Shown here piece after piece: positions 2,249-58,184 of a stretch of DNA of 64,000 nucleotides. The DNA is from Paraspadella gotoi (taxonomy: Eukaryota > Animalia > Chaetognatha), in assembly GCA_051294375.1 (NCBI GenBank), contig CM119265.1, positions 8,254,772-8,318,771 of the forward strand, written 5' to 3'. The notes below the pieces were generated by a model. The model was not told where the DNA came from. It did no database searches and saw only the letters and a list, made by a program, of their open reading frames with translations. The position numbers and the translations under genes were made by a program. The stretch's first letter is position 1; every line of letters starts with the position of its first letter.

Positions 2249-2516
2249 TTGTTTGTTTACGTACAAATTTGATTAAGAAAACTAAATTTCGGATATTTTT
2301 CAGCTTCAATGTAAACCTTCATCAACGCAAAAACGAATTGATTTGTAAAAAATATTTTCACAGACTTTGTGTCAAGTTTGAAGAGTGAGAAAAAGAAAGA
2401 GTCAGTAAAATATTTGTTTCACAAATCAATTCGTTTTTGCGCTGATGAAGGCTTACATTGAAACTGAAACATGTCCCAAATTTGATTCTTTATAAAACTC
2501 GTACGTAAACAAACAA
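2249..2516. mobile_element. Small foldback (inverted-repeat) element with a degenerate minimal hammerhead motif in each arm
   Basis: Arms ~2249-2360 and ~2405-2516 are reverse complements (ends TTGTTTGTTTACGTAC / GTACGTAAACAAACAA). The right arm has CTGATGA-AGGCTT-ACATTG-AAACT-GAAA-CATG-TC. Confidence 0.7.
2442..2475 (+). ncRNA. Minimal type I hammerhead ribozyme-like motif (degenerate)
   Basis: Core CUGAUGA...GAAA, palindromic CAUG loop and a GUC cleavage triplet; stem II is imperfect and stem I weak. Confidence 0.5.
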
Positions 2517-3713: not shown

Positions 3714-3930
3714 TTATGGACTAAAATCCACCAACCGTTCATCAGCGGCCATAGGTGCCGGAGGCAAGTCATTCGCCTCCCAACCCAAAGGTCCGGGGTT
3801 CTAGCCCGGTGGCTGCCTAGGAATTAAGAGGGACGGGGCGCTTAACATGGTGTTACAGCCTGATCCGAAGCTCAGGGACTGCTTATATTGAACGGTTCTG
3901 TCATTAACACATATCAATAATTACTGCACT
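3714..3930 (+). mobile_element. tRNA-derived SINE-like repeat, copy 1
   Basis: Near-identical to 60039-60272. The tRNA-like head 3745-3817 has acceptor stem GCGGCCA/TGGCTGC, B-box-like GGTTCTAGCCC and a Gly(CCC)-like anticodon region TTCGCCTCCCAA. Confidence 0.7.
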
Positions 3931-4359
3931 TCAAATTTTAAATTTCGGTAGAAATAAATAAAACTCAGTTTTTACCAACTTAGAGGCTTAAACTTGCTTA
4001 ATGCTTAGTGGGACATTCATATGGACACTTATTTAGCTAAATAGTTATTCAACGATACTGTTTCGTAAATTAGGGAAATTTAACTTCTCCAAATTATAAT
4101 TCAAACGAATGACGTCATTGACATGAAGTGAAAGTTTGGAATCAAAAATTTAGCAGTTATATCTTGTATTTATTATTTTTATAAATATAATAACCCAGTC
4201 AGCTTATTTTGTATATAGTACTAACCTTATATAATATCAAAATAGCTTTTTTTTTTAATTTTGAGAACATCTTTAGATTCTTGTAAAAAGTTGATAAAAG
4301 AAAATATAAATCTTTTTTCAAAAATTATGTCATTAAGTTAAAATTATAAAAACTATAAA

Positions 4360-4782
4360 TTATCTTGCAAGTGTGATGGAGGCCTTTAACCACCAAAGCC
4401 TGTCCAAATTCAGGGACAAGAAAGCTTATTTATTAAATGGATGGATAATTTTTATATTGGTTGTACTAATTTCATAAAATTCAGCTCCTTGTATTTTAAT
4501 GCTAGTGCGGAGTACAATATAGTATTCCCCGATCTTTTCACATAATTGAAACATTCTTTGAAATATTATACCACTTCATTGATAGGGAAGCCAGGTTCAC
4601 TGGGAGTGAATAAACAAGTCTGTGAGAGAGGCTTGATTAAAAGCTTGCAGAAACCTGTTATTTTATTATCTTGCAAGTGTGATGGAGGCCTTAAACCACC
4701 AAAGCCTGTCCAAAGTCAGGGACAAGATAGCTTATTTATTAAATGGATGGATAATTTTTATATTGGTTGTACCAATTTCATA
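4360..4782. repeat. High-copy dispersed element family B (partial copy plus near-full copy)
   Basis: Core CAAAGCCTGTCCAAAGTCAGGG(G/A)CAAGATAGCTTATTTATTAAATGAATGGATAATTTTTATATTGGTTGTACCAATTTCATA. Other copies lie at ~471-550, 3040-3100, 7640-7701, 17923-18220, 21677-21878(-), 25993-26030(-), 49890-50433, 60006-60318(-) and 61289-61348(-). Confidence 0.85.
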
Positions 4783-5557
4783 CTTATTACTATATATAAA
4801 TAATATTAAATAGAGCTCACTGGTACTCACTAATATATAAAATAATAAAAAATAAATTTAAATATTTTTATTAATTTTTATATTTTATATGCTAAATTTT
4901 AATTTTTTAAAAGAGTCAGTAAAAATTTAAAACTTTAATGAACATCTATTCTAGACTAATTGCGTTTTCTCAAGAAATGAACAAAAGTCAAATCTTTTTA
5001 ATTTGGCATTTTTTATTTGACATATTCTAAATATAACATTTATTCACGATACAGAATTAAACCTTATGTCTATAAATTAAAAAGTAGTACATATCACAGT
5101 ATGCAACAAAAATTTTAATGGATAATTACTCGCAAAAAGTTTCTAAACAATATGAAATCCCTCAGCAAGATTATGCGAAAATGTTGTCTTGTCTCGAGCT
5201 AGAAGCCGACAACGACCAAGACAAACCTTGGCGCATGCAGCATAAGACACATTAAAATGGTTTTATCAATGTAAATATACATAACAAATAAAAAAAGAGC
5301 AAAAACAAAAAATATCAACAAGCGATGACTTTTCGCTTCAAATCGCGATTAAATTTACTACTGTAATTAATAGATGCGCTAGAGTATAATAGGCTATTTT
5401 AATGGAAGCGATGCGGCGGTTTTTAATGAACGCGCGACCACAAACGAGTAAAAAAAAATTTAAGAATGAAATTAAGCCAAGTCAATGTCCCACGATCACA
5501 CTCGAGTTTTTTTTCCACGAAGCGACTTTAAACGAAATCGAGTCAATTAGCGTTCGA

Positions 5558-7168
5558 TCACGCGTCGACTACGAGGCCGACGCCAAAGTCGTTGGGACCT
5601 GCGGCGACGTTCATGGCGTTGACTTGACCAGAGACGTTGAGGGAGACGCCGTCGCGGAGGCGCGTGCTGTAGGCGACGGAGAGAAGGGAGGAGTTGTCGA
5701 TTTTCACTGCCGGGGTACAGAAAAGGTGAGGGGTGGTGGAGATATATTGAAATGGAGGTTTAACAAAAGGGGAGGTTCGTGCAAAAATAAAGAAAGCCAA
5801 TAGTTGTCAACTCCCTTACCCGCGACGGACGAGATTCCGCTGAGTGCGACTTTATGTGAGAGGGCGAGGGAAGGTTTGTCGCCGGGTGTCGCGTTGAGCT
5901 CGACGCCCAGTTCCGCGTCGGACGACAATTTTTGGTAAACCTGAGCGTTGACCGCCTTGTCCGCCGCCAGCGTCGTCAAAAGCTATATAAACATAACGCA
6001 GAGCACAACGAATTAAACAATCCAAAGGTTTTTCATTTCTTCTATTGTTCTCTTTCCACCTGAAAGTCAGGCCCTCGGAATCCCAGAGCGCAAGAGCCTT
6101 GCAGCGAGGAGGGTTTTCTGGGGTCGACGCTGGATAGAAAACCGGCGACCCACCCGTTACGGTTGATANNNNNNNNNNNNNNNNNNNNNNNNNACCGCCG
6201 AGGCCTCGACCGACGAGAGGTTGTCAGACACGGCGACACCCACGGTTGCCAGGTCGTTGCTAAAGTGAATAGGGAAAATTTCTAGATAAAAAACATTCAC
6301 AGAACGAAATTCACAATTTATACTGTGCCACAAAACAAAAGTACCAAACCTGAAGCTGGACTTGAGCCCCAAGTTGAGTTTGCCCGTGTCGGGGGCGAAG
6401 ACCGACGTAAGTCCGACGTTGAGACCGGAAACGACGAAGTCCTTGACCGACAGGGATTCTTCCAAGACGCGGGCGCTGGTGTAACGCATCGTGAAATCCG
6501 CTCCCTAGATGCAAAAAGGCGAACACAGTCTAAACTACAGCAAATTCCTTGGAGTATCCATTTTTTTTTTCAATCCGACGAACCCAAAAGACATGAGAGG
6601 ATTCCAAGGCGCTGGTGACGCTCTTGGGACCCGTTTGCATGGACAGATTCCCTCCGAATTTGGAGCCGGTTTTCGTGGCAGTCGTGAAGTCGAGAGAAAA
6701 GGCGCCAGCGTTGAAGGGGGCGTGCAGCACGGCGTGGGAAGGAGACGCCAAATCTGAAAAATAAGAAGCGACGTTTTTTAATATTACGCAGTGAGTTAAG
6801 GATGAAAAGCCGTACCTTCGAAGGCCGGGATCGGGACGGACTTGTCTTTCAGTTCGGTGGACGAGCGGGACTTGCATCCGCAACACTGAGGGGGAAACAC
6901 GAAAGGATCTCAACCTAAAGAGTCAGTCGACTCACACCAACCCAGCTTTTTCTACTCGGTTCTTACTTCTTTTACAGCGTTGTCGTTGGTGTTGGCGGCG
7001 GCCGTCTCGACAACGTCCGTCAAAACTAATAGAAGAAAAATTCCTCTTTGGCTTCCGAGTCTCATCTTTTGAAAATCCCCTTCTCCACTTACCCGCAGCG
7101 GAGGGAAGTTCCGGGAGGGCGGCTTCCAATACCGCCGCTGCCTCCTTTGCCTTGAAAGCATCCCCCAT
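5558..7168 (-). CDS. VDAC: Divergent voltage-dependent anion channel (porin) with a ~70-aa N-terminal extension
   Basis: Spliced translation PIPAFEDLASPSHAVLHAPFNAGAFSLDFTTATKTG...VTSALESSHVFW aligns by eye to the VDAC N-terminus. It also has VDAC-like LNVGLTSVFAPDTGK, INRNGWVAG, AQVYQKLS and a C-terminal beta-signal FGVGLVVDA*. Confidence 0.85.
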
Positions 7169-8629: not shown

Positions 8630-10270
8630 TCACACGATTCTGACGTCCTGCACGCTGGCCTTGACGAGATTGAACAACGTCTTGTCGTCGCGCCGATATC
8701 GGCAAAGCACGACCGCCTTGAGCTGTTCGAGAAAGACGTCGAGGTCGTCCTCGAGACCACGGTGATCCAAGTCGGTCACGTGACGCAACGCGTCAACGCG
8801 TTTGAGCCTGGCCTGGATCTGCGCGCGCACGTGGTCGTAGTACCGCTTCAAATAAGAGTTCTTCTCAGCGCGTTCGCGGTTTTCCTTGAGCGACTTGGTC
8901 ACCTCCGCTTCCATGGTTTTAAGCTTTGACTGCGGGGGTAGTATGGGAGATAATATGATCCGACATGATTACTGATTGGATAAACAATTTCAAACATGTC
9001 AAATATATCCTAAATTTTTCCAGCGACGAACTTGAAAATCCGAGTAGCCAGACTCGAGCTCTTTATTTTCTTTGGTGAGCCTTTCAATCTCCTGGTCCAA
9101 TTTTTGAAGTTCGCCGTCCGTACTGAGTAAATCGATCCCGGCGCAAGCCTTTTTGTGAATTTCCTGTTTTGCAATATTAAAAGGCGAATTATTAAACTTT
9201 GGTAACTGTGATAAGGCCTTTTTTTCTTGTAACCAGAAATTCTTGGACCTCACCTGCATGACCTCTGAGGTAAGTTTAGCGCGCTTCATGACATTGGTGG
9301 CCCTCGGACACCCGGACAGAGAGCGGTGCGACGAGTAAGTTCCGACCGCGTTACCGCTTCCATCGCAACCTGGCGTCGGGCACGTCTCCCATCTAGTTTA
9401 AAATAAAATTATTATGTTTAAATTGTAAATATTAAATTTTTAAATAAGATTAAAATGCTGCTCATAAAACTAAAACCTCGTTCCCACCTGGCAGTGTTGC
9501 TGGTGAGCCCGAGAACCTCACAAGCTTTGGCCGAACAGTCAGAATGAACAACCGAGGGTGGTCGGAAAGAGGCCTGCAAAAAAAGAAAATATCAAAGAAA
9601 TGGAATCCCTATCCGCCAATTTTGACCGAAAGTCATCTCCACTCACCGTCGGGCCGTCTCCCTTGAGATAAACTATCCTCGGTGCCACCGGTTGAGACGA
9701 TAACAATTCAAATTGCGTCGACACGCCTTTCGAGGAAAGTTTCGTGGAGCAATCGGTGGTTGCGGCAGTTGTGTCGGATGCCTCGGGTGCGGCAGAAAGG
9801 GAGATGTTTTCCGTCGATGCGGATTCCAAATCGTCACATGACGACGGGTTAGCCGGTTCGTCGAAGAGCTCGCCAGAGTTTATCGGACCGGAAGAAGAGG
9901 CGGAGGAGTTGGCGTCGATCAAGGTGGAAGACGAGGAAGATAAAATCCCGGCGTCGCTTATGAGAGTTTGGTTGGATCGGAGCGGCGGCGCAGAGTCGGC
10001 GGAAGGAAATTGAGCGGAGAAGACGGAAAGCGGCGCGGGAGGAGTCGAGCCTCGAGAGGATCGTCCCGGCGCTGACGACGGCGTCGGGGATGAACGACGC
10101 TCGTAAGTTAAAGGCCGTTTGGAGCCAGCGCGAAAGTGAAGAGGTGGATCCGGCGTTGGAAGGACAGGAGTCGGTGACGCCGAAAGAGACGAAGCGACGT
10201 CCTTCATATCGGCGACGTTGTTGTTTACCGAAGCGATGGAGATCATGACGGGATCCGCGCCTGACGCCAT
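8630..10270 (-). CDS. MYT1/ST18-like C2HC zinc-finger protein with C-terminal coiled coil
   Basis: The exon at ~9250-9390 encodes [28 protein letters not shown]. The C-terminus [16 protein letters not shown]...[12 protein letters not shown]...[15 protein letters not shown] resembles the MYT1 family tail; the N-terminus is Ser/Pro-rich. Confidence 0.75.
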
Positions 10271-10936
10271 CGTCAGATTAAAAGTTCGTTTTTCTCTAAT
10301 ATGCAAACAGAATTAAAAATCAAACAAAAAAAGGAAATGTATTTTTTTATAAATACATATCATATACGCATATTGTTGAAAACGTCAATAACGCACGGTT
10401 TTTGGAAATAAACTTTTTTCTTTTAATAATATACGACTGGATATTACTAATCTTTAACATCACTTAGAACTTTACATTTTGTCTTACTATAACGTGCAGT
10501 ATTGCGGAATAAATACGTATTACATATGTATAAAATATGGTAGGCGTTTCCGTTTGCGCATGTGCACAACGTGGTGACTAGATTGTGTTAATGATGATAA
10601 ATATATGTCGTAATAGAAGTATTCATTGAATTAGTAATTTTATCCTTAGATGAAAGCTTTGACAGTAAAAAATACGCAAACAAACAAGGCAAGACAGACA
10701 AAAAAGTATTGGCCACTCAAACCGAGCGGTCAGGCGTAACACTCCCGAAAAATCAAGCATCTACGAATTTGAAAAAAACACACTAAGACAGTAACAGAAA
10801 TTTTGAGTAAATGAATGGAGTTCAAGAAAATAAATAAATAACGAAAAAAAAGCCTCCGTTGCTTTTTTTTATGGCCAAATGTTTAGTACGTTGGCCAAGT
10901 TTCACCCTCGAGGGCCTCGCGAGGCGGAGGGACGGT

Positions 10937-11306
10937 TTAATCGTCATCGTCATCCGGCACGAAAATATCGTTCTCCTCGAGAAAGGCGGCGCCTTCTCGA
11001 GCGACCGTGGCGCCGATGTAGATGCCGGGAATGGCGCAACCAAGGACTTTGACCACTCCCAGGCGGTTCACTTCCGGTTTCGGCAGAAACGCGCCTAAAA
11101 AAAAAGTTGAAGGGAATGGGAACCCGTTTCATTTTCCTCACACGAAACATTTCGGATGTTTTTCGTTTTCGTAGTTTTTTACCAGTTTCCGTGGTGACTG
11201 CCGTCCTCGCCGTTTGAACTCCGGTCGATTTACTCAGCTCGAGCAACGCTTTGTCGCCTCCCTTTTTCAGCGCCAAAAGCGACATCTGCCTCAGGCTGGC
11301 CGCCAT
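10937..11306 (-). CDS. SMDT1: Essential MCU regulator (EMRE), 2 exons
   Basis: Mitochondrial presequence MAASLRQMSLLALKK...TTETG spliced to AFLPKPEVNRLGVVKVLGCAIPGIYIGATVAREGAAFLEENDIFVPDDDDD* (TM helix with GxxxG plus poly-Asp tail). The second exon frame is not in the ORF track. Confidence 0.92.
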
Positions 11307-11911
11307 AATTTTAGTTTGTAAAGTTTATTATGGTTCTTATACTCAACAACGGGGCTATCTAAATAATTTCTCGAATCTCCCTAGGGTGGAGTGATGAAAG
11401 TATTAAGCGAGTTAATATTTTTTTTGCTGCCTTCGTATAGGTAAATAATAGGAGAGCAAATTGTATTTTCTTTGTAGTAATATCCTTATAAATTTGTAAA
11501 ATTTCAAAATGATTTTTAAAAGAAATGAAGGTTTAAGAGGGAAAAAGAGAAAGAAATAATAGATAATACATTGAAGCAATATACAACAAAATTAAATGTT
11601 AATCATTGAAATTTATCCACAATTAACTAATAAATAAAATTAATAGTTTGAAAAATAAAATGAGTTAAATTGATTTACAAAGCGATTTACAATAATGAAA
11701 ATCTAAGAATTTATATAGTTAATCAAAATCTAAAATATTTTTATATTATTTGCAGTCAACAGTTTACGATTTTGTCTTCATTTTAAGAGGGTGTTTGATG
11801 TAACTAGATTGGTATCCTTGGTTTAATCCTTTCTTTTCGTGTTGTTTTTAGAGATTACAAGTAATTTTATTGAATTTGTGAACAACGATTTTATTTTACA
11901 TAGCATAGGCA

Positions 11912-11946
11912 GACATGTTTCGACTCACAATTCGAGTCTTCATCAG
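11912..11946 (-). ncRNA. Minimal type I hammerhead ribozyme motif (left arm)
   Basis: Exact reverse complement of the motif at 12592-12626. Confidence 0.65.
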
Positions 11947-12591
11947 CGAGACCAAAAGAGTGGTCAGAGATGAGGACAGGTTAAGTTCAAGACAGATGTA
12001 ATTTAGTTTGTGAAAAGAAATGAAGTTTTAAGAGAGGGAGAGAGAGAGAAAAAAATAGTAGATAATACATATAGGCCATGTACAACAAAGTTAAATATTA
12101 ATTAAACTAAAGTTTTTGAAATTTATAAACAACTAATAAATAAAATAAATAGTTTAAAAAATAAAATTAGTGAGATTAAAATTTGGAGAATGAAAAAGGA
12201 TAGCTAAGCAAAAGAAATAATAAAATTAAGAGTGAAGAAAAAGCTCAAACATCAGGAGCTGTCTATTGGGCAACCTGTGCTGGGATAAGCAACCAGCCTT
12301 GCACAGCAGCATACTCTTTTGTTTAGCTATCCCTTTCCATTCTCCAAATTTCAATCTCACTAATTTCATTTTTCAAACTATTTATTTTATTTATTAGTTA
12401 ATTGTTGATAAATTTCAAAAACTTTAGTTTAATTAACATTTAACTTTGTTGTACATGGCCTAAATGTATTATCTACTATTTTTTTCTCTCTCTCTCTCCC
12501 TCTCTTAAAACTTCATTTCTTTTCACAAACTAAATTACATCTGTCTTGAACTTAACCTGTCCTCATCTCTGACCACTCTCTTTTGGTCTCG

Positions 12592-12626
12592 CTGATGAAG
12601 ACTCGAATTGTGAGTCGAAACATGTC
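12592..12626 (+). ncRNA. Minimal type I hammerhead ribozyme motif (right arm)
   Basis: CTGATGA-A-GACTC-GAATTGT-GAGTC-GAAA-CATG-TC: intact core, perfect 5-bp stem II, and a 1-bp stem III with palindromic CATG loop. Stem I pairing is weak. Confidence 0.65.
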
Positions 12627-13498
12627 TGCCTCTGCTATGTAAAAAAAAATTGTTGTTCACAAATTCAATAAAATTACTTGTAATCTCTAAAAACAACGAA
12701 AAGAAAGGATAAAACCAAGGATACCGATCTAGTTACATCAAATACCCTCTTAAAATGAAGACAAAATCGTAAAATGTTGACTGCAAAATAATATAAAATA
12801 TTTTAGATTTTGATTAACTAATAATAAATTCTTAGATTTTCATTATTGTAAATCGCTTTACCCCCTGAAATTGTAATTTTTTTTTTTGCTACATCCACCA
12901 GAGGTTTTAATGTTTTTTCTGAAACAAAGAACAGTCCCATTAAATTTCTTTAGGTTTTGACCTTATTCAATCAGAGGGCTCTACAAACAAGAAAGCCTTT
13001 TGTAAGACAAAGGAACATTCAAAATAAACTTCATCTGCACCCACTAGATCTTCACTTGCACCTGCTCTTCAACAAAATATCAATTGTTTCTTTAAAATTT
13101 TTATGTATTATTTTTATGTATAGGCGCAGCCACTGGTTATTATTATTATTACTTTATAACGAGGGGGTATCTTCCATTAAGATACAAACTTTAAAATGTA
13201 ATTTAATGTAAATTAGGGACAGGGAGTCTTTTAAAAATAATGTTTTTTTAATTCGTTGAAATTGGTTTCTTGAACTTTCTGTGACTCCATATCGATAGAG
13301 GGCCGATGAGTTGACGCCGCCATATCTTAACGTGTGTTCGTAGAGTTAATATTTAGGTACAAATTACTTGGACTGTAACTAAAGAAAACAAGTTTCAATT
13401 GTTTCAATATCTTTTGAAACAAAGCATGAAAACAAATTTAAAGACTAAATTTCTAACGAGCACTAACACTAACAACAATCGCAAATATAACCAGAGAG

Positions 13499-15719
13499 TC
13501 AGGAAACCCAGTTGCGTTCAAACTCTTCCATTTCGTCTTCGCACAAATCCCCGTCTCCAAAAGACGCCGGAGAGTCGTAATCGTCGTCTTCGAAGTCCGA
13601 TTCAAAGTCGTCATAACGCGCAACCATGTTTTGGTCCTGACGAAGGGAGAAAATGGAGCCATCGAACCATAAGAATTTCCATGGTTTCGTGGCGTCGGAA
13701 TCGACGGCATGAGAGATCTCTGAACCTCCGGCTTTAATATCGAGCGGGGCCTCGCGGCGGCGTTTGTTTATCGGTACCGGTTCGGATCCGATGCCAAACC
13801 AACGCCATACGAACTTGTCAGTCACACCATAATCGCCGCTAATATCGAGATAATTCAAGGCGGGGCACCCGGCCACGACCTTAATGAGTTTATCATCGTC
13901 GATGCCCGGCGTCGCCGTCAAAACCAGCGTCTCCAGCTCGGGATAAACCACGGGAAAATAAAAATCATCCGGTAACCGTATGTAACCGAGATTGAGATAT
14001 TGCAATCTCGGAAGTTTGCCAATGCAACTCTCGGAAAAAAAATGAGTGTTATTGAGTGAATAACAGCACGATAGGTTGAGACGCTTTAGCATGACGCAGT
14101 GGTCGAGGATTTGGCGCAGGATCTGTGCGTCGACGCAACGGTTCTGGGAGAGGTCCAGGTCATTTAATTCGGTATCCGCGTTGAAGAGGGGCGCCAACGA
14201 AACTTCCGGTATCATGTTCATCTGGCTGAGTTTTAGGACGCGGAGGTGGCAGAGCCTCGACAGGTGTAAAAAACCGTCGACGCTTAGGCCAACGCAGTTG
14301 GACAGGTTGACCACTTTAAGATCAGGACACTTCTCGACGATTTTCTTGACGCTGTCATCCTTGAGTTTGTTACATCGCTCGAGATTAAGTTCGACTAATT
14401 TTTCGTTCGCCAAATGAAAAAAGTTGCCGACGATTCTAGAACAGCCGCGCAGGTCGAGAGACTCGAGCTCGCGGCAATCCTTGAGGAAGTACCAGGCCGC
14501 CTTTTCCTGTAAATCGAGACCATCCCTAATAATCAGACGCTTCAAGCCTTTGCATCCACCGCTTATGTGACGAATGGCGTCAAGAGTCATCTGAGCACCA
14601 CTGGGAGAAAATAAAAAACCTAAAATACTAAGTCGTGAGTAAAGAAAACTGAAATCAAACTAGGATTCACCTTATATCCAACTTCTCTAACTTGGGACAC
14701 AAGTCTCCGATGGCCTTTAATGCGTGATGTCTCAATCCGCTCCTCGAGATGTCGAGATGCCGCAGACCCGTCTTGTTCGTCTTCCAACCTCTCATCCTTT
14801 TGAGAAGGCCGACGAAGGTGAAATCGTTGATAGCAGATCCGAAAGAGTAAAAAGCTGGGAAATCGGGCAAAACGAAGGAAGTAAGCAAGGACCAAGAGTC
14901 TCGCGAGAGGCGTCGCCAGCGTTGGCAGACTCGCTCGAGACGAACTCGTTCGCGAAGGTCGAGCAGAGAAAAGACGCGAAGGAGGACGAGGTCTGGCAAG
15001 AAGTCCCCGGGAGACGGAGCAGAGTCTTCGCCGTCGTCGGAATCCTCCAATTTAAGACCCTCCAATGACGAACCCTCCGCCACGTCGTCAGCGATTCCCT
15101 CACTCAACGCCTTTATCTTATCAAAACCACGCGCAATCTCGACGCGCGCCTGACGCCCGCGTAAGACGAGGTCCTCGTCGGCTGCCGCAAGCGCCGCCTT
15201 CACGCCGGCTTCGTCCTCGAAAACGACGAAGCCGAAGCCTTTGGAGAGGCAGCGTCGCCCGAAAACGCCGGGTTTGCGGATTATCTGGCCACTTTTGACG
15301 CGACCGAATTTGGAGAAGAATTCCTCGAGTTCTTCCTCGTTGACGTCGTAGTCGAGGCGAGAAACGTAAACGCGATTCTCTTTACCGCCTCGGAGTCGGT
15401 TGATGCCGACGTCACGGCCGTCGCTGCGGAAGCGGCGTGGGTAGGCCCCGAGGGAACGGTTTCGACCACCGCGGGCTCCACCGCGTGGGGGCCGCGCGTC
15501 TCCCCATGAGTCCTGGGCGTCCGGAACGGCATCTGGGGGGGCATCCTTGGTGGCGTCGGGAGCAACACCAGCGTCAAGAGCAGCGTCGGTAGCAACCCCG
15601 GTGTCAGGAGCTGCGTCTGGAGCAATATGGGGTGAAATTTTGGGGCCGCTATCATTATTTTCAGCTCCCTCGGCGAAACACAACGCGGCTCCACCCAGCG
15701 CTCCTGATTGACAACTCAT
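13499..15719 (-). CDS. RRM + F-box + leucine-rich-repeat protein (2 exons)
   Basis: RGG segment, RNP2 (VYVSRL), RNP1 (KGFGFVVF), F-box (LPDLVLLRVFSLLDLRERVRLERVCQRW), about 10 cysteine-containing LRRs and an acidic tail; intron ~14602-14670. Confidence 0.9.
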
Positions 15720-15925
15720 TTGTGCGAACTGCAGCTTAGGAAAAGAGACAGAACTGATTCAATTAAATGACAACAGCGAATCGTGTAAGAAGCAAAACAC
15801 GAAATTGAAACGAAACGATGATTTATTTTAATCTAAATGAAAAACTGTTAGGTATCGAATAAAAAATAAACTGAGATGGCGGTGCGAGATGGCAGCAACG
15901 ATAAAAGGGCAAAGGGCAACGCGTG

Positions 15926-17922: not shown

Positions 17923-18220
17923 GTGCGGAGTACAATATAGTATTCCCCGATCTAATACTTAAGGGAGTGGTCTTTTCATACAATTGAAACATTCTTTGAA
18001 ATATTATACCACTTCATTGATAGGGAAGCCAGGTTCACTGGGAGTGAATAAATAAGACTGTGAGAGAGTCTTGATTGAAAGCTTGCAGAAACCTGCTATG
18101 TTATTATCTTGTAAGTGTGATGGAGGCCTTAAACCACCAAAGCCTGTCCAAAGTCAGGGACAAGATAGCTTATTTATTAAATGAATGGATAATTTTTATA
18201 TTGGTTGTACCAATTTCATA
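17923..18220. mobile_element. Longest copy of repeat family B (non-autonomous, terminal hairpin; Helitron/Helentron-like)
   Basis: One end is the hairpin GTGCGGAGTAC-AATATA-GTATTCCCCG, shared with 4505-4531; the other end is fixed at ...GTACCAATTTCATA. Confidence 0.65.
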
Positions 18221-19124
18221 CAATCATTTGTAAGCTAAAATCACAATTATGATTAACATAGCCGAGTCTACAGTTTTAGGGTAGAAAAAGTAATTGTAAC
18301 TATCGTGTCTTCATATTCCGTGCTCATATTTACGACGATAAAATTCAAGAACCCTGCACTTGCACGGTTTCTAAAAATTTTGAGAAAATTCGATGACTAG
18401 TCGAAGTGGGATGATTCTTTACAGGACTCAAAAGAAGCGTATTTAAAAAGAAATAATTTAAATCAAAGTAACAAATATTACTAAAGGTAAAAAACATAAT
18501 GGTCGAGACCTCAACATAAACCTATCTCCCTTTCGCAAGGGCATCATTTTAAAAACATTTATAAAAAATACTGCAGTGATAAAAAAATTTAATGAACTTG
18601 AGATCCATGTGTTAATGTTTTGATTGTAAGACGAGATACTGTCGATTTTAAATCCAAAGACAATACCATTAGCGCTGGGACTTATACCGAATTCGAAAAA
18701 ATCATATACGGCTGGAGCCTCAATAAGAAATAAATAAAAATAAAGTTTTGAATGAGTGATTGGGTTTTTTCGTTTTGTATTTTTTTCTCACCAAAATCCA
18801 TTGACTGCGTGCTTCAAAAACTACAACTAAAAATAAGCAATTTCGCTATTATAAATCAACTTTTAAAAAAAAAAGCGGAATCTGAAAGAAGTCCTACACG
18901 GAAAAACCTCAAAAAAAAAAAATTACGTCCAATTTCCCTCAAAACTGAAAGAAAAGCCTTGAGGCGGCGAAAACCAAAAGGTCGAAAAATCTCTCAACAA
19001 CTAAGACTAAAAGAGACAATGTAAAGCAGACGAGGACGATATAGTTGAGGCGGGAAGGGTCCGGTGGTTGTTGTTGTCGTTGGAGTCGCGGCCGGCACGC
19101 GTCAATGGATTCGGTGACGCATCG

Positions 19125-22100
19125 TCATTTGGAGACGAGGCCTTTAGCTTTGGGGAAAGCGTCGTTCGACGCTTTGGAACTTCTCGTCTTGGAGGATTTG
19201 GAGCGAGATCCGGAAGATTTGCTCTCCCTCCTGAAGACGTCGGGGATCGTCTCCGAATCGAGAGAGGTCTTCGACTTTCGACCTGACAATGCGAAACTCA
19301 TGATCAAATCAAGGGACAAAACCAATCTCAAAAAGCAGGGTTCTCTCACCGCCGAAAGAATCACCGACACCGGTGAGCTCGAGGTCGCCCTCGTCGTCGT
19401 CTTCTTGCAGAGCGGCGTCGAGCGCGGCTTGAACCCGAGGCGCCACCGTCGGGCCCTCCCACTCTCTCGTCGTCCGGCCAGGCATGTCGAGCTCCAACTG
19501 AATATAATTTTTTTTTTTCTGACTTCGACGTTCAGTTAGCATAGGACCTTAATAACTCACCTGCAGAATATTTTCCCCCTTGTAGCGAGGGTTTCCGCCC
19601 CGAGCCGCCATTTTGGCGTATTCGGAAGTGGGTCGGCGATGCCCGGCGGCGGAGACTGGTCGCTTCAAAACCCCATCACCACCGGCGGCACCGAGCTCCC
19701 CAGCCGCCTGTTCATTGATTTCTTTTAACTTCCAATTGTCGTCGTCCTCGTCGAAAAAAGCGCGCTTCATTACCTGATCGGAGATCGGAAACAATGCTAG
19801 TCGTTAAAAAGAAAAAAAATACTTTTTGGATACATACTCAATAAGGCGGGTTAAATTCGATCCCTTTTTATCATTAGAAGTTTTGTCATATAAAATTAAT
19901 TTGTCCATCATATACTTAATCAATATTTACTATCACTTTCATAACTAGTGAAGCACAGTATAACATTGAAGTATTTATAAATGCATAGGCAATGAAATAA
20001 ATTTTTTGCAAAAATTTATTTTTTTAAGAACGGATTCAGATAGCCCATAAAAAGTTGTCTACACAAAGTATAATGCGTTTTTCAATATTTCGATGATAAA
20101 TGGGTCAAATAAGGGAAAAACCCTTAAAAATCATCATCATCATACCATAATTTTTATAGTTTTTGCTAATTTTAACCAATAAAACATAAAAATTTGGAAT
20201 TCTTATTATAATATTTTTTTATTCATTTTTGCAAGCTCTACCCGAATCCGTTTTTAAAAATTCTGAATTTGAAATATAAGCTTTTGTCTTGATATCGAGT
20301 ACACATATGGCTACTCCCCCTTCGGTAAGCCATTGCTCTACGACCAATTTTGGGACATCAGAACTTATTGTAAAAAGATGCTTCAGCCAGATTTGAACCT
20401 GAAACCTTTTCGTAACGTTGAAATCCGGCGCGCTAAGCACTCGGCCAAATGATTTTCAAAAAAATTTTGTACAAATTAAATTATATAAAGCTGTAGGTTC
20501 GCTTTTAATTTTTTGGGGGAAACAAAAAATTCAACGTTCGAAGGCAGAGATTTCGACATCCGAGTCCCAAGTTTCCCGATTCGTGACGACGATTAATACG
20601 AAGAAACCGAATATCTGGCTTATTTTTAATGTTTGAAATTGAGGAAAAGTCAGTTGCTTCTTTAAGCCGCGACATTGAACATTTTCACCTTGCTTTTAAG
20701 GTGTTTTATTAAGTGTTTTTAACTAGTTGCTTATTGTATCAATATTAATAAATAGGCTAATGATTGAGAGAATGAAAGAATGAAATCGTTTCAAAAATGG
20801 AATAATCTAAGTTTTTGATTTGCATAAAAACAAGTTTGAGCAAACAATGTCGGATCTGCCTACAATAATTAAGCAGTAATTAGCTAATACGATGATAATT
20901 GTTGGTAATGTTTTCTGACTTTCAATTTGTGATCTTAACCAATCATAACATGTTGTAACATAAACAAGTTTGAGCAAACAATGTCGGATCTGCCAACGAT
21001 CATTATCGGTAATTAATTAATTAATAATTAAGTTAATTAATTAATTATTTTGATCCAAAATGTTTTTTTTGATTGATTAATTGACTGATTAATTAATTAT
21101 TGATTAATTAATTGACTTATTGATTAATTAACTGATTAATTATTTGATTAATTAATATATGTATTTATATTTAATAAAAAAGCATAATCAATTAGTGAAA
21201 CACGTTTTTTTGTTTTTTTCCATTTAAACTCATTTCCACTCAAACGATTCCATCGAAACTTGATTTCCAGTTTTAATCACACACTTTTCTACCCACATAC
21301 AAAATTTCAAGTTAATCTCCCCATCCACTCATGAGTAATTGGTGTTCAAATAGTGAAATATATTTTTTTTCCAGATCAGAAAAGAAAAACCAAAATTTAT
21401 ATTGAGGTTTTTGAATTTTTTTTTTAAATAACGAGATGGCCGAGTGGTTAAAAACTAAGACTTCGACGCAAAATGGAATGGTAGGATTCGAATCCCACTC
21501 GAGGTAATCTTTTACAATAAACTGCTATGTCCCAAAAGTGGTCGTAGAGCAATGGCTTACCGAAGGGGGAGTAGCCATATGAATACTCGATAACAAGACA
21601 AAAAGTATCTTTCAAATTATCATTTGTACTCGAGTTACAGAGCTTGCCGTCTCAGAAGTTCTAGACGGATGCTACTGTACAACCAATATAAAAATTATCC
21701 ATTCATTTAATAAATAAGCTATCTTGCCCCTGACTTTGGACAGGCTTTGGTGGTTTAAGGCCTCCATCACTCTTACAAAATAATTACATAGCAGGTCCCT
21801 ACAAGCTTTCAATCAAGACTCTCACACAGTCCCGTTTATTCACTCCCAGAGTACCTGGCTTCCCTATCAATGAAGTGGACAGTGAAGATTTTTTTTTTTA
21901 ATATCGTTATCCCACAGGGATGCTCTAACGTTATTTATATGACAGAACTCTTAGTTTTTACCTTGTTCCGCCTTAATACTCAAGCGAAGACTACGCTTAC
22001 TTTGGCCTTTTCCTCGGGTGGAATGAAATTTTCGATGATTAAAACTTTGAGCTTTAATTCCCGCGTCAACTCCATCTGCGTTTGTTCCAATTCTTGTCGC

Positions 22101-39324: not shown

Positions 39325-41035
39325 TCAGAGTCGTAATTTGTCAATAATCTTTTCTGCGATCCCGAGATAAACTGCAGCCTGCGGCGAATCCGGACGTGAG
39401 ATGACGATGGGGCGCCCACCGTCCGAACTCGAGCGGATATCGACGTCGAGGGGAACGTCTCCGAGGAGGTCCAGGTCCGAGTCTTCACACATGCGCTTCA
39501 CGCCGTCCTCTCCTGTAAAGAGAAACAGCCATTTAGGATTCATTCACATTTGAAAGGCTTTTCAATCATCATAAGCTTCACCAAATATGTGCGACAGATG
39601 GTTGCATTTCGGGCAGACGAACGAAGACATGTTTTGAACTAATCCCAGAACGGGGACGTCCACCTTGCCAAACATTTCGGCGCCGCGTTTCGCGTCAATG
39701 AGGGACAAATCCTGAGGGGTCGAGACTATCACTGCGCCTGTCAAAAAGTTTTTAAAAGTAAAACAAAACATAAATACTATACTGATACTGTTAAGCAAAA
39801 GTTCATGAGTTTGACTGAGTAAGAGGATAACGTCAAGTTATCAATGCGAATTAGCGAACCTGAAATCGGCAAGTTTTGTGAAAGCGAGAGCTGCGTGTCA
39901 CCAGTGCCAGGAGGCGTATCAATAACCAGCACGTCCAGGGGATCCCAACGTACTTTATAAAGGAGTCTTTCAATCCATTGCATTACCATCAAGCCTCGCA
40001 GCACCACGGGAGATGTCGGACCAACGAGGAAACCCACGGACATTACCTAACAACCGAAGAAGTAATACATAATTTTCTATAAGATTTCTTGCGCTACTGG
40101 GAAAGAGCTCATTGCAAACCTTGAGGCCGAAATTGTTGAGGGGCAACATTATTTGTTGGTCGTCGATTTCGGGCGAATCGTCGAGGTTCATCATCGTGGG
40201 AATCGACGGTCCAAAGACATCGGCGTCAAGAATACCGACCTGAAGATTACGACTCCTGTAGCGAGCGATCATATGTGTCGACGCTTGACTTATTTTAATT
40301 TATTTTCATTTTTTTTTTACCACCAACCTAGAGCTGGAGAGGGCAAGCGCGAGATTAACGGCTGTCGTGGATTTACCCACACCCCCTTTGCCGGAAGCGA
40401 CGACGATGACGTTGGAGACCCCTGAAGATTGAAATAGAATTCTGAAAATAGCTTCATTGCACTTGAGAACAAAAATTTGATTTGAGGCAATTAAAAATTA
40501 TATATTATATGATAAACCGTTTTTATCGTTTTTTTGCATTAAATATTTTAACATTAAAGTATCATATAACATATTTTATAAAAGTTTTTTTATTTTTTTC
40601 TGACGAATCTGAATTTGTTATTAAAATTTATAAAAAATTAATTTGAAATTTTACAAATTTATTATTATAAAGAAAATACAATTTGTTATACTGTTATGCT
40701 AAAATATTTTTTAAAAAGCATGATTTTCTTTAATTACAAATACGGAAGCAGCAAAAAAATTGTTAACTCGCTTAATCTTTTCATCACTCCACCCTATTGA
40801 ACATGCGCAAGGAATAATAACAATGAAACAATCACTTACCGGGAATGGAGCGTTTCGCCGGCAATCCTCGCGACTGAATCTCTTTTCTCCTCTCCTCGAT
40901 TTTCCGCGCTCGCTCTATCTCCGCATCATTCTCTTCCTCTCTCGTTTTTCTTTTCCAAAAATCTCTTCGAGCATCCCATCTTTGCGGAGAAGCGAGGAGG
41001 TTTCGTGACGCAGCGTTTAAAATACATTTATTCAT
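39325..41035 (-). CDS. NUBPL: Mitochondrial Fe-S cluster carrier NUBPL/Ind1 (Mrp/NBP35 family)
   Basis: [11 protein letters not shown]|[64 protein letters not shown]. Confidence 0.95.
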
Positions 41036-47270: not shown

Positions 47271-48059
47271 CGTCGCTTTTTATTGCTTTTAATTTCGAAG
47301 GTGGCTTAACCCCGTTGGCTTTAGCGCGGAACAGGCATCGGGGAAGAAAAGGGCGGCGCGGACCACAATCACAGGAAAGTTAAAAAAAAAATCTGATTTT
47401 AAAAAACACGGAAAATAAGAAAGCGTTAGGAGTCGGAAACGCTTGGCGGTGATTACAAATAAACAATATTTTCACTAGCTAATAATAGGATTATCTTTGC
47501 AACAGAGATTCATTATGACTGGCTCTTAATCCCTCATGATATGGGTAAGAAAAAAGGACCATTGATGAATTGTATTTGATGAAATCAAAATGTGTTATTA
47601 TCTCCCGTACCGAAATGCACTGTCTCAGCGCAGACTAGTGACGGTTTTCAGTCGCAGATTAATGTACGTAGACAGTTCATGATTAAAGAAGTCACAGAAT
47701 TCCTCATTCTTTTCACAAGAATAAGAAACTTCGGTCCTGCCCATAATGTGACTCCGGTTAAATAAAATGCACGCATTTTAGTTAATTAATCAAACTAATT
47801 TAAAAAGCATTATCTTAATATAGAAATTTTAAGGAAATTTCTTTCAACTTCAGGATTAAAAATGAATACCGCGGGCTTTCAGGCAAATCTTAATTCGTGT
47901 TTCTCCCTCTTGCAGTGGGCAACCGATAATGCAAAGAAAATAAAAAAGCAAAAATAAATTCATTCACAAAAGAGAAGCTATCACGCATTACAGTTTCTTT
48001 TTTAAAAAGAAATATTTGCGAAGGGATAAAAAATTTTTGGTCTAGTCAATCCGAAGATG

Positions 48060-49769
48060 TCACTCGACACCATGAGCAAATATCATTACTAGGCCCGGCT
48101 CCAAAATCATATCGGGACCCATATGTCGGTTGTCACAAGCAGTAATGACGACGGCTTGTTTTCCGGGGATACGCTTTGGGACATAGTTTTCGTAATTTCG
48201 ACGGTTGAGTTGCCGCGTCTCCAGAGTATTCAGCCGCGACGGCCATTTCCGCTCATGGGCGTTTTCCATCAGTTCCATAGCGATCGTCGAAGGGCATCCG
48301 CTGTCGAGAAGGGCGCGCTTCACGACCGCTTGAAGCGTCGTGTCGGGCGTCGATATCATTCCGCCCCAACGAGTCACTCTTGAAAATAGGATGAGGATTT
48401 AAGGGAAAGATTAGGAAGGTCACAAGGAAAAGTGTTTCAATCCAGACACTCACCGCGCCGGACGAAGCGACGCCACCCAATCCATAAGATCTTGGTTCAT
48501 GGAAGAACTCAACGAGTTCGCTTCGGCCGCAGCGGAAGTTGCGGCGGCGGCGCCGGCACCGGCCTGGTTCGACAGTTGCATGATTAGCGCCGCGTCGGAG
48601 GCGTTGTGACCCGAGGCCATCGTAGCGATGGTCATGATAACCTCGTTATCGTCGCTCGTACTGGGAAATTAAGAAATATAAATTAAACTTTTCTAAGTTG
48701 ACAAGATAACAACAAGAGAAACCTGGTGTTGTGAGGAGACATGGGCGATCTGATGGAGAGAGGAGACGATTCCGTGTTCATGGGCATCACCGCCGAAGAA
48801 GAAGATCGCGACTCGAAACTGAAGAAAGGAAAAGCGATGAGTCAGACCTCGTTGAAGACGAAGCAGTCAACGTCAATCGCCTTCATACAGAGTGGGAAGA
48901 GTCTGTCCGCGGGGAAGGAGATTTTGAACGGTATCGCGAATGATGTCGAGGTTGCGTCTCATGTCCGAATTGAGGAGTTTTTGTTCTCCGAGTTCTTGCT
49001 ACGGAGATGACAAAGTAAGAACGATTTTAACGTACCGTACATTACTGCATAGCAAAGTTAGTTGTAAAGAACCTGCATCATCGATATTCTATTTTGTTGT
49101 TGCTGCAAGAGAAGCCTCATTTCTCTCACACAGTTGTGCTCCTTAAGCTCGTCTTTCGGAATCACGATGCCGCAACCCTGTTCAGAAAATTAGTTACTTT
49201 TAGATTGCTCAGTTAATCTAAAATGACGAGGCGATTATAACGCTTGAATAGTTAACTGACTTGGGGGCAGGGAACTGGCCGCTTCGGGTTAAACTCGCAC
49301 TCTGAGACGTGAATTTCCAAACGATCGAGCTTCACAGTTTGCTTGGTGAAAAAAAAGTAACCAAAATAACTACACGTGTAGAAAAATAGGATGTAAATTT
49401 ACTTTACTGACCTGACAACCGTATTTAAAATTCTCGCAAGAAATATCCAATCGAGAAAGCAGATTCCGTAAAATTCTCGGGACTGGCTTTAAGTGACATA
49501 TGACTAGACGTTGACGGTCTACGGGACAAGTGGCCTGTCGAGTAAGCCATTCTGAGAAAAACAAAAATAAAACCTTTTCTAAAAAAAAAAAAAAAAACTA
49601 AAAAAAACCATCAGCGATCGCGCATCGTACAACAACCTTGTATACAGCCCATGCAAAACGCGTGTTCGCACTCTGGCGCCTGTAGCGGATCTTCCAACAC
49701 CCCGCTACAGATTGGACACAAAAGTTCTTCGTCCACTTCGCCCAAAAAACGGGCAACGTCATACCCCAT
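48060..49769 (-). CDS. RNF41: E3 ubiquitin ligase NRDP1
   Basis: MGYDVARFLGEVDEELLCPICSGVLEDPLQAPECEHAFC, TCPVDR, C-terminal USP8-interacting domain VTRWGGMISTPD...NAHERKWP...EPGLVMIFAHGVE*. Confidence 0.96.
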
Positions 49770-49933
49770 GATGGTTTAAGTGATCGTCTAAGTAAAACCT
49801 CTGCCAAAAGAAAAAAGTCAAACCCACCCAGATTTTAACTCCGTCCGCGAATGAGTTTAGCAAATAAGGATAAGGATCGTCGCAATCGCAAGGGGCAAGA
49901 TAGCTTATTTTTTAAATGAATGGATAATTTTTA

Positions 49934-50410
49934 CAGGCTTCATATTAGAAAATGCTCTTTCGCTTTTTCGAACCGAGTATCGGTTCTGACCAAATCACTG
50001 AACCAAATTTGATACGATTTTTCGTGCAGTAAAAAAAAGGTAAATTTTTTCGTGGGATCATTTTGCATTAATGTCTTAACTTTGTAAAAAAAAACATGTT
50101 AAAACTAATTTTCTAAAATTTAAATTGATTTTTCTTCTTTTGAACATTGTTAGTCCATCATTTTAGAACAAATTTTTGCTCCCCTAACGAAAGCTGGCAT
50201 GAACATCCTTTGTTCATTATCTTGGAAATAGAGCAAAAATTCGTTTTTCACAAAATTTACTTTTCTGCACAAATAGAAGTTTCTGCAACTGTTCAGGATT
50301 AATTTTTTTTATAAATTTGAAAAAAAATTGTTAATTTTTTGCCCACCTGGGCTGACCTTTTTAGGGCCCATATATCGAAAAAAAAGTATTTTCTCATATG
50401 AAGCCTTCTG
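49934..50410. mobile_element. Tc1/mariner-type MITE (TA TSD) nested in repeat B
   Basis: TA|CAGGCTTCATATTAGAAAATGC...GTATTTTCTCATATGAAGCCTTCTG|TA interrupts the repeat-B sequence GATAATTTT[TA]TATTGGTTG. Confidence 0.8.
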
Positions 50411-50690
50411 TATATTGGTTGTACCAATTTCATAGCAAAAATCTGGACCTATGACAAACTTTGATACTCAAAAAATCAAATTTCATACAGGAAGACAAAG
50501 TTTTATAAATAACAAACGACTTAATATATAGATTTTTTAAAAAATATTAGTGATTCGACGCACATATTCAACAATAATAATTACAAGCGATAGCGACGAT
50601 AAAAAGAACTTGACAAACAGAATAACAAAATCAATTCGAAGCCTAATAAAGACAACTCGATGCTATGGGAATCTACACTCCCAAAAGCAC

Positions 50691-51429
<739 letters not shown>

Positions 51430-51616
51430 TTAAAAATGGTGTGCGAAGCCCATTTACAGTACTGGTGGATACTAGCTGTAAATATGCGTCCAAACATTTC
51501 ATTTTTTAAGGAAATACCCAATAGAAAAAAGGCGATGATAGTCGAAAGGAATAATTCATTGACTAGAAGAATTCAGAGCGTGTGCTCTTTCCGATTCTCG
51601 CTCACAAGCCGAGATT

Positions 51617-54112: not shown

Positions 54113-54437
54113 GTTTGCATAGGCAATCTTTAAGAAGAGTTAACAAGAAAACGATAGCGAATTTAATTGATAAATACAATCAAATCACAGTAATCAAACG
54201 TCACGGTTCCCTAGACACCCCGTAAAAGAAAATAGAAATAACCCATTTTTGAAACACAAAAAAAAAATGAAAAATATAATGTTTTTACTACATCGTAGTG
54301 AAGTCGAAAAATTCTGACCCAAGAAAGTTTTTATTTTAATTGAATTTTAAAGTTTTGTTATAATTTTTCATACAAAATAATGAGAATAGCAGCACCATGA
54401 ACTGCTACGAATTGGATAAATTAACTAAGCATCGAGT

Positions 54438-57031
54438 TCAGGTGCCTGAATCTTGTGGTTCTAAAATATTCTCCTGCGTTTCAACGACAGTTTCTTGCGT
54501 AATCACTTCCGTTTGCGGCGTTTCAAAAATCGTCTCCTCCGTTCCATCATTTCCCTCTGAAGTTTCCCGCGTTACCGCTTCGTTTTCAAGAATTTGTTTC
54601 ACTTCTGTCTCTTGGTTTTCGTTTCGAACCAAGCCGCCCATTCCCTGTCCGCTCGCTTCCTCTTCGCTTCCAAAGAGCAAGGGGGAATCGTCAAACAAAT
54701 TCGGCGACACTGACTCTTGACTTTCACTCATCTCTTTCTCCACCCACTCCATCAGAAAAGATATCAAATTCTTCTTTGAAAATTTGCCGGTGTCGACGTC
54801 GGCGGAACCGAAGAGGCTGTCGACCTCGATAAAGAACTTGAACAAAGTGCCCACAGTGACGTCGTTTTCCGTCAAGAAAGAGTGCACCTTGTGCAGGTCG
54901 CGCGCAAGCTGGACGTCGCCAAAGGTGAAGTAGGCCAGGTCCCTCCCCGTCTCCGCGGCGGCCATCATCTGGATGAGACTCTTTAGGTAAGGATCGCCGC
55001 CAAAGGCTCCGCATCCCCAGTTTCCCGTGGCGACGGCGCTAAGGTTACTCGTGTCGACACCAGGGCGGACGAAAGCGGCATATGCCTTGTTCAACTCTCT
55101 CTTGACGCACTTAAGGGCGTATTGACGGGAGGACCAGTTAAATCGCAGGGCATCCATGGCGACGACTTCCGTGCTTAGTCGGCCCCAGGCGTCGCGTCGC
55201 GTTCGATCCTGAAAATTCCCGCGCCATTCAAAAGTGTCCGCATAACCGACGTAGTTGGAGTATCTTTCGGCGCCGATGACGATAAGGCACTCGTCACCGT
55301 CCAATTCCTCAGCCACCAACTGACTGACGATGAGTTCTGGACACATAAGGAACCTGATCTCCTCTTGGACGCAGCCTTCCCCGAGGGTCCCGCCCCCTAA
55401 GTACTTGTTGGCAAAGTCGACCTGGAGAAGACCGTCCGCGCCTTCGATCGTCCCTTCTGAATGGGGAAGAGTAAAAACAAATATTTGATTGAGTTAATTA
55501 AATTCCACATAAAGTCAAATGAAACCCACCGGCAGAAACATACAAACGCGGAATTCGCTTTTCACTCTCCTTCCACTCGGGCGTCTGCGTGACCTTCTGA
55601 CGAATGAAAGTGATAGTCCCCGTCGGCTCCCTATCCGTAACCCTCTCAAAGTAGTGAAGCAGGGCTCGAAGTTTCTCGCACTTTCCCCTGGAGTTCCATT
55701 CGTCGAAAAGTCGGTTAAAGTTGATCTCGGGAAACGAGGCGAACTCGCTGGCGCGGTGCTGCGAATTTCGGCGAGGAAAGGTGCAGAAGAAAGCGTTGGC
55801 AAGCAGCGCCGCGCACTGGCGCTGGGTGAGAGTTAGACGCCGATTTCCCGCCGCGTCGAGTTTGCGTAGGAGCGGCGGCGGGGTGGTACAGACCTCGGGA
55901 AGAGAGAGGCATAGGGCGATCATCTTGGGCATAAGGGTTTGGAAGAGGGAGCGAGACTCTTCCCGCGTCAGCCTCTCGCCAAAGTAAGAGTGAAGAGAGC
56001 GAAAATTCCAACGGTCTTTGTAATGTGGATTGTAGTAGAGGATAGCTTCTTTCAGATCAAAGCTGGAGCAAAAGTTGTCGCTGAGGGACCCGACGATAAG
56101 CTCCCAACGACTTTGAAGGCCCGACTTAGTGGGGCACAAGTTTTTAGGGGAGCACGGCATGCGGACATGGTATGAATCCCACTGGTCCGAGTATTTGGAG
56201 GGAAACGGACGCGGGGGTTCGCCTTAAAAGGGGAGGAAGATTTGGGCGAATAAAGCTTTCATTATGTGATGATGTAGGTAGAACTCTCCCTGTCTCTCTC
56301 TTTCTCTCTCTCTTTTCTGAGGTTTAAACATCCCTTTACCTTGACGTATATGTGGACGGAACATGATGAAATGAGATCGGGATTCGGGCCTTAATTCTCC
56401 CAAGGGCGCGCTGCATTCCGGTGTCCTTAGGAGATCCGTCAGCGGCGTTCCGAACGTCTTCTGCGACAGAGATCCCTGCCTTAAGGAAGGTAAACTAAGG
56501 AATAATTCATACGCCCAGAGGTTAAGCATGAGCGAGCCGTCGGCACCTGTTATCCGTTTCGATCTCGAAGTCGGCCATGTCTGGTCCAGAGGAGAAATCG
56601 GTCTCTACGACCTTCGGGCTTTCCAAAAGCGGAGGGGAATTGTCGTCGTCGTCTTCGTCTTCGCGCGGGGGCGACTGGGGCTCCTCGTCCGAATCGCACA
56701 TATCGATCACCACGTGCTTCGTCAACGAGTCCTTCGAAGGCCCGGCTATCTCAGCTTCCGGCGCCGTCGCGTTGGACGAACACGCGCCAGCGACGGATGG
56801 GGCCTCAAGAGTAACAGAGTCAAGGGCTTCCGGCGCGCCGTCCCTCGGTTTAGAGATGGGCGTCTTTGTAGCGTCGGCGTTCATGGCGACGCGAGAAAGA
56901 AAAAATTTTTCAAGATTTGTCTGTTTGAGGCAATTAGAAGCGAGAGGCCCGTGCTTGGACGAGTCGCGCTTGAAGCTCTTGGCTAGATTGGCGCGCTTCG
57001 TCTCCAAAGAGGGCGGCGACAACGTCTTCAT
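54438..57031 (-). CDS. PARG: Poly(ADP-ribose) glycohydrolase (start approximate)
   Basis: WDSYHVRMPCS, LLANAFFCTFPRRN, catalytic loop VDFANKYLGGGTLGEGCVQEEIRFLMCPEL, RELNKAY, VATGNWGCGAFGGD; PIP-like KQTNLEKFF in the N-terminus. Confidence 0.95.
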
Positions 57032-58003: not shown

Positions 58004-58184
58004 TTTATTGATAGATTTAATCATACGTAAATACCAAACAAGCTTCATAAAAATCATTTCTGTATCTCATACGTATATAAAAATTTGAATCGGAATATTT
58101 AACATTTTTCGGCAGATCGACTTTTTCTTATCAACAAGCCTTTTTGGGTCAGCATCTTTTCTAATTTAATACGCAAATGGTCAC

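Follow-up and report, generated by a model that had tools for sequence, protein, structure and literature searches.

Between two minus-strand genes of the chaetognath Paraspadella gotoi lies a 1.2-kb DNA palindrome with a minimal hammerhead ribozyme motif in each arm. It sits in a stretch of 64,000 nucleotides (contig CM119265.1, positions 8,254,772 to 8,318,771) that was analysed as a whole and is called the window here. Which kind of element left this structure, and does its ribozyme act on RNA transcribed through it? The answer that we hold with good though not full confidence is that the palindrome is a head-to-head stub, likely of Penelope-like element (PLE) origin, with a hammerhead of the published minimal type that is predicted to be silent in place, and that its hairpin is probably an ADAR substrate. 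Motif and layout have been published before, and the locus is ordinary in kind. The features discussed below are listed in Table 1.

Table 1. Positions of the palindrome, its hammerheads and its neighbours in the window.
Feature	Position	Strand and orientation	Basis and remarks
Second head-to-head palindrome (78%)	2249-2516		blastn, scans; flanks unrelated
Downstream host gene, EMRE family (PF10161)	10937-11306	(-)	Pfam; 88-nt intron at about 11094-11181
High-copy repeat bounding the third copy	11382-11517		blastn, depth; further copy at 40633-40796
Older partial third copy of the inner arm	11518-11673	(-), head-to-tail behind left arm	blastn
Left arm	11679-12215	(-), hammerhead sense on minus strand, 3' end outward from centre	blastn, alignment
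Identical hammerhead, left arm	11910-11948 (core 11946-11912)	(-)	Predicted cut after C at 11912
Spacer, 99 nt, unpaired	12216-12314	No strand	Folding and contig depth
Right arm	12315-12859	(+), hammerhead sense on plus strand	blastn, alignment; ends 233 nt beyond predicted cut
Minimal type I hammerhead, right arm	12590-12628 (core 12592-12626)	(+)	Pattern scan; predicted cut after C12626
High-copy repeat, right flank	About 12890-13120		Depth 37,146 and 100,464 in two X3 bins
Upstream host gene (RRM + F-box + LRR)	13499-15758	(-)	Pfam; RNA contig extends down to 13050

The genomic setting is a run of minus-strand genes. The left neighbour matches PF10161, which we take to be the EMRE family, and the right neighbour combines RRM, F-box and LRR domains, both on the minus strand as an earlier reading of this DNA from its letters (the sequence-only reading) had stated. 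The RRM precedes the F-box within one frame (14667-15758), upstream of the LRR frame. Apart from one astacin frame, every Pfam-matched frame from 8.6 to 57 kb is on the minus strand, and this housekeeping run (8600-57300; LSm, F-box/LRR, EMRE, zf-C2HC, kinesin, helicase, TGT, Per1, NAT, RINT1, PARG and others) appears to be operon-like. A sigma-70 promoter scan, irrelevant to an animal, returned nothing usable. In protein searches the best matches reached 42% and 39%, with no close named relative among them. The high-copy repeats on the two sides of the element are unrelated to the palindrome and form separate units. The left one reaches a depth of 118,837 in the bin 11407-11507 of DNA run X3, about 600 times single-copy depth; it lies directly upstream of the EMRE start, and the EMRE RNA contig enters it up to 11425. 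The right one has no second copy in the window.

Several other repeats lie farther away. A palindrome at 58257-58657 (94%) has a perfect direct repeat of 70 bp (58185-58254 and 58449-58518) spanning its centre, and scans found no hammerhead core at 58185-58657. Inverted copies 5.7 kb apart at 1-327 and 6016-6367 (with 59-473) are each broken by a 25-N gap beside a local inverted repeat and are possibly a hairpin element that is hard to assemble. Repeat copies at 3718-3934 and 60045-60273 are 88% alike, GC-richer and SINE-like in look, and ARAGORN found no tRNA in them. A dispersed family has many copies in both orientations (4359-4783, 17923-18224, 21677-21878, 471-555 and 61282-61347).

The palindrome itself is well preserved. 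A blastn search of the region against the window aligns 11679-12215 with 12859-12315 over 548 columns at 94.3% identity (830 bits), and global alignment separates the arms by 16 substitutions and 8 indel events. Inverted arms of about 540 bp, each with a hammerhead motif, had been described in the sequence-only reading, together with an older partial third arm and the absence of an open reading frame. All three statements hold: the motif is identical in both arms, the third piece is 79.8% identical to the right arm and 76.3% to the left, and stop-to-stop frames in the element span 65 codons at most (frames of at least 50 aa were listed). The third piece has the orientation of the left arm, comprises the inner 156 nt of an arm and ends short of the hammerhead, which gives a unit of about 505 nt. 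With z of -0.61 and +1.18, the fold of the spacer is not unusual. Other contigs of the organism contain part of it again, with a depth of 4053 against about 200 in X3 and of 705 against about 13 in DNA run X5; this recurring part thus stands at about 20-55 times single-copy depth, above that of the arms. The best flanking repeat that could serve as a target-site duplication (TSD) is 6 nt long and was equalled or exceeded in 232 of 300 shuffles, and no one-sided tail of 30-40 nt was identified at the palindrome, whose ends are judged from its single full copy. Both features are optional in PLEs.

The motif reads CTGATGA-A-GACTC-loop-GAGTC-GAAA-CATG-TC at +12592..12626 and at -11946..11912, and both copies point outward. 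Its pattern matches three times in the window (the third at +2442) and not once in 100 shuffles. In RNA it consists of CUGAUGA, an extra A, GAAA, the palindromic ACAUGU and the cut triplet GUC. Helix II has five Watson-Crick pairs and a G.U and is closed by G10.1-C11.1, with the extra base between A9 and G10.1 as a PLE-type hammerhead requires. The loop of helix III is only 2 nt, and two ACAUGU strands would pair with -4.6 kcal/mol in a helix III dimer. Helix I consists of 2 bp, a G.U and a C-G, so the caveat of the sequence-only reading that stem I pairs poorly was well placed. The published consensus of the minimal PLE hammerhead is CUGANGAH-G..C-GAAA-palindrome-UH (PMC4209133 supplement). 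PLE hammerheads typically have 4-5 bp in helix I, and the D. virilis Penelope variant combines a small palindromic helix III with a helix I of 2 bp (PMC4209133). By its letters, the core in both arms fits this consensus, including the variant with the 2-bp helix I. Scoring against Rfam models, a check that the earlier reading had called for, gave no hammerhead match (E<=1 on 9000-15000 and E<=10 on 12500-12720). Weak matches to TLS-PK5 and other Rfam models were treated as chance, and matches of CTGATGAA at -3745 and -60072 were set aside as they have neither GAAA nor helix II. Between the two arms the core is not significantly spared from change (P 0.18).

The same core is abundant elsewhere in the genome, and the arms around it are not. 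Contigs of four runs were placed on 10700-13700 at 80% likeness; the summed depth is no copy number. At the core, X3 has a depth of 48,000-59,000 where the flanking genes have 199-233, and X5 has 1,650-2,450 against 10-25, which suggests a few hundred loci. Among the 24 of 469 rows covered, loose contig ends pile up at the core edges (6-25 contigs per row, agreement 0.49-0.62) and also at 11882, some 30 nt beyond the cut site, where the sequences then become unlike. Depth and loose ends together confine the shared part to about 11882-11948, and its flanks are many and unlike. The consensus of the loose ends behind 12626 starts with CG in 4 of 4 runs (agreement 0.53-0.56) and is complementary to the CG before the core. 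Because the two would pair, the family form likely has a 2-bp Watson-Crick helix I, judged from these letters, and the copy here is likely slightly degraded. In the 12 of 104 indel rows covered, CUGAUGA and GAAACAUGUC are free of indels. Outside the core, the depth of the arms is at most about 4.5 times single-copy in X3, where records were filtered and holes may be artefact; the palindrome is therefore not of a prolific subfamily. Some joints in the DNA runs connect inverted cores with 8 or 22 letters between them; their sides measure just 30 and 21 letters, and they were not counted.

A second head-to-head palindrome in the window, at 2249-2516, has only the core in common with the first. 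Its core at +2442..2475 is intact with a damaged helix II, and the core of its other arm (minus strand, from 2325) has decayed; helix II of the two arms bears opposite single changes. The pair of palindromes bears on whether the element could be a DNA foldback transposon or MITE that holds the motif by chance. Long inverted arms, no reading frame and further palindromes in the window are what such an element would offer, but the motif is the sole part common to two unrelated palindromes, its helix II is perfect and shuffled sequence never produced it. The outer ends of a MITE should moreover be high-copy, and here they stand at about single-copy depth. We consider this origin very improbable.

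An abundant core in rare arms can be explained by many diverged PLE families. Families that share only their ribozyme are the published picture (PMC4209133), and a cassette that carries host DNA would also fit. In its strict form, this second explanation makes the hammerhead cassette alone (the core and about 30 nt) the mobile unit, with a PLE protein acting in trans that would copy any host RNA bearing it and write head-to-head duplications of host sequence. It draws on the narrow shared segment with its many unlike flanks, on the two palindromes of the window that agree only in their cores, and on the pLTR-driven capture of unrelated sequence in trans described for Adineta (PMC3846280). Diverged families that keep the ribozyme alone would give the same picture (PMC4209133), however, and no donor locus is known for the arm, so that we think the cassette unlikely to be the whole mobile unit.

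The core is also found beyond this genome. A motif scan of metagenome contigs gave at least 113 loci, and many AT-rich metagenome contigs carry the core in head-to-head palindromes of 250-550 bp, often several per contig. Among the matches listed, an inverted partner within 1.5 kb lies upstream (head-to-head) in 35 of 114 and downstream (tail-to-tail) in 0 of 114; 1 of 28 stemless matches has an inverted copy upstream. Across 101 distinct instances, pairs 2-5 of helix II and pairs 1-4 of helix I beat all 2000 partner shuffles. These instances were chosen by the core alone and show several pair types per position, and the statistics ignore kinship. Where helix II has at least 4 bp, helix I has 4-6 bp in 30 of 44 metagenome instances. 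Pfam found no PLE reverse transcriptase (RT) or GIY-YIG domain in 47 of 162 long frames from these loci, a scan that omitted bacterial-looking loci and the shortest frames. Two RT matches in metagenome frames appear LINE-like. Viral contigs gave 0 matches.

The one-sided orientation weighs on a further explanation, in which a DNA-level fold-back duplicated local intergenic DNA that already held one hammerhead repeat, so that the link to PLEs would be limited to a cassette of about 70 nt. Arms that are near single-copy outside the core would follow naturally from such an event, the TSD is absent and an older copy of the inner arm adjoins the palindrome. The arm past the cut site is also longer here (233 nt) than in 27 metagenome palindromes (9-105 nt). 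Against this, the copies stand head-to-head in this palindrome, in that at 2249-2516 and in all 35 oriented metagenome cases among the matches listed, and random fold-back would produce tail-to-tail pairs as well. We regard a fold-back as rather unlikely.

Head-to-head is the most frequent arrangement of Penelope elements (PMC3846280; PMC8557442), and by motif and layout the palindrome is likely the stub of a PLE end. The claim that it is a non-autonomous Penelope-like foldback stands in so far as each arm has a PLE-type hammerhead, the arms are head-to-head and no reading frame is present; its weak side is that no PLE RT or GIY-YIG domain was found by Pfam in the 121 frames of the window. Rough motif patterns, written from recall, likewise found none in the window or in the metagenome loci. 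For a stub, the absence of such a frame from the window is as expected. Since neither a PLE reading frame nor a TSD was found, membership rests on motif and layout.

Likeness to known elements is closest for the minimal PLE hammerheads of D. virilis type as PMC4209133 presents them. Shared are CUGANGA with the extra base, G10.1-C11.1, a long helix II, the small palindromic helix III, the 2-bp helix I and AT-rich flanks. Such hammerheads are many per genome, with opposite-strand pairs about 100-700 bp apart; here they are many as well, and the pair is 646 bp apart. The examples given there are mostly Watson-Crick at G2.1/U1.1 whereas a wobble is found here, and the copies here have no linked reading frame (PMC4209133). 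EN+ Penelope elements with an inverted pLTR share the head-to-head copy at the 5' side and the partial tandem behind one arm, but the locus here is without reading frame, TSD or recognised tail, and its third copy is 20-24% diverged (PMC3846280; PMC8557442). Adineta pLTRs measure about 180-220 bp against arms of 540 bp here (PMC3846280; PMC8557442). PAc, a Poseidon PLE of Anolis, likewise has a hammerhead near its end in an AT-rich setting; its reading frame starts at helix II (PMC11167929), whereas here all three frames behind the core soon close. Animal non-LTR retrozymes share the non-autonomy, the low GC, the type I hammerhead and a head-to-tail step (about 505 nt here). PMC7229834 describes them as arranged in tandem arrays of 150-450 bp; their hammerheads are canonical and their circular RNA is abundant. 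The locus here differs in having one minimal motif per strand in inverted order and only low RNA depth. Tandem repeats that each hold a canonical hammerhead, as in retrozymes, were not found, as the third copy stops before the motif.

For the PLE stub that we prefer, the following origin can be proposed. A PLE reverse transcriptase encoded elsewhere would have copied a hammerhead-bearing pseudo-LTR and added an inverted copy at its 5' side, with the insertion falling beside, or in tandem with, the older copy at 11518-11673. By analogy with what is established for the family, the motif would work in the parent RNA only as an ACAUGU dimer or with the element's protein. In its present place, the hammerhead would be a passenger.

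A different role had been foreseen in the sequence-only reading, namely that the hammerhead in a minus-strand read-through transcript could cut the polycistron. In such RNA the left-arm motif is the sense copy. Folding of the through-transcript gives a minimum free energy of -806.5 kcal/mol. The antisense copy (nt 255 of the folded stretch) precedes the sense core (nt 935). The sense core is computed to pair with the antisense arm with a mean probability of 0.9995, and helix II has a probability of 0.0. Because arm pairs with arm in any through-transcript, helix II is not expected to form: the arm duplex over the motif is worth -93.3 kcal/mol against the helix III dimer given above. Helix III also needs a second sense copy, and the read-through RNA has one.

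These values argue against the notion that the hammerhead at 11912-11946 cuts read-through RNA between the F-box gene and EMRE and helps to resolve a polycistron. Both cores are intact, read-through is likely and the strand of the surrounding Pfam-matched genes is nearly uniform, all of which speak in favour of it. Yet transcription reaches the antisense arm before the core, which that arm is predicted to bury, the sense copy is single, helix III has a loop of 2 nt and helix I is 2 bp long with a wobble. Experiments on related motifs point the same way: a tested minimal hammerhead monomer was not cleaved (PMC4209133), and the PLE ribozyme of Anolis required protein to cut, was dispensable for insertion and, in the results cited here, had no read ends at its site (PMC11167929). 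From these models and precedents, the hammerhead probably does not cut in place; the polycistron claim was not borne out, and we hold it to be highly unlikely.

RNA contigs speak to whether the read-through transcript is made. Data sets X6 and X7 consist of RNA, as the EMRE intron is skipped in their contigs, and appear to be a single data set under two entries. The change listing covers 40 of 136 rows, so that the T>C changes are only presumed to lie within the arms, and the comparison DNA comes from other samples. In X6, T>C accounts for 38 of the 90 changed places and A>G for 6; in X7 the figures are 41 of 97 and 7. The DNA runs have 8 of 63 (X3) and 5 of 47 (X5), or 13 of 110 together. The T>C excess of X6 over X3 and X5 has a Fisher p of 1.3e-6 and the strand bias a binomial p of 9e-7; both values are optimistic because the places are not independent and some places in X3 and X5 are common to both owing to repeats. 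Seen from the minus strand, on which the flanking genes are read, a plus-strand T>C is an A>G, and placing one arm on the other accounts for no more than 4 T>C. Over 11605-12346, three RNA contigs carry 12, 12 and 13 other letters (37). Their depth is about 3; that of the flanking genes is 179-296. Such letters number 0 in the contigs of the flanking mRNAs, and 0 and 1 in DNA contigs over 12063-12471.

The T>C excess is likely minus-strand A-to-I editing, as seen in one RNA data set, and the minus-strand read-through and its hairpin are probably made. The expectation that a minus-strand read-through would form a duplex of more than 500 bp is in this way supported indirectly, by folding and by the RNA T>C excess. 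On this single data set, low-level read-through from the F-box gene toward EMRE may form a duplex that is edited by an ADAR-type enzyme. In C. elegans, hairpins formed by repeats are well-known targets of A-to-I editing (PMC4317174). The edited inverted repeats reported there share clustered edits in non-coding repeat hairpins, which range from 20 bp to 1 kb; they are mostly DNA transposons, unlike the palindrome here (PMC4317174). A limited search found no literature that joins hammerheads, A-to-I editing, ADAR and Penelope. Two further candidates were rejected. For excision of the hairpin from RNA, as in SOS splicing (PMC12779559), the 15 of 19 joint rows covered contain no such joint. Six A/G differences between the arms, considered as a genomic fossil of editing, are one-sided; the third copy covers 3 of them and agrees with the right arm at 2.

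A wider conjecture, to which we assign a low probability, is that the cassette of about 70 nt, rather than a whole pseudo-LTR, is the cis-signal for a Penelope-type RT. It would have seeded hundreds of loci whose flanks are unrelated and duplicated adjacent host sequence head-to-head, giving rise across the genome to ADAR-edited hairpins in operon-like clusters, and the hairpin here would tune EMRE RNA derived from read-through. As read here, the locus would be a natural case in which a retroelement ribozyme is kept silent by the mirror copy beside it, and probably by editing from the host as well, within a gene cluster. That the core is abundant and the arms are near-unique bears on how PLEs make head-to-head insertions and on what minimal signal they need.
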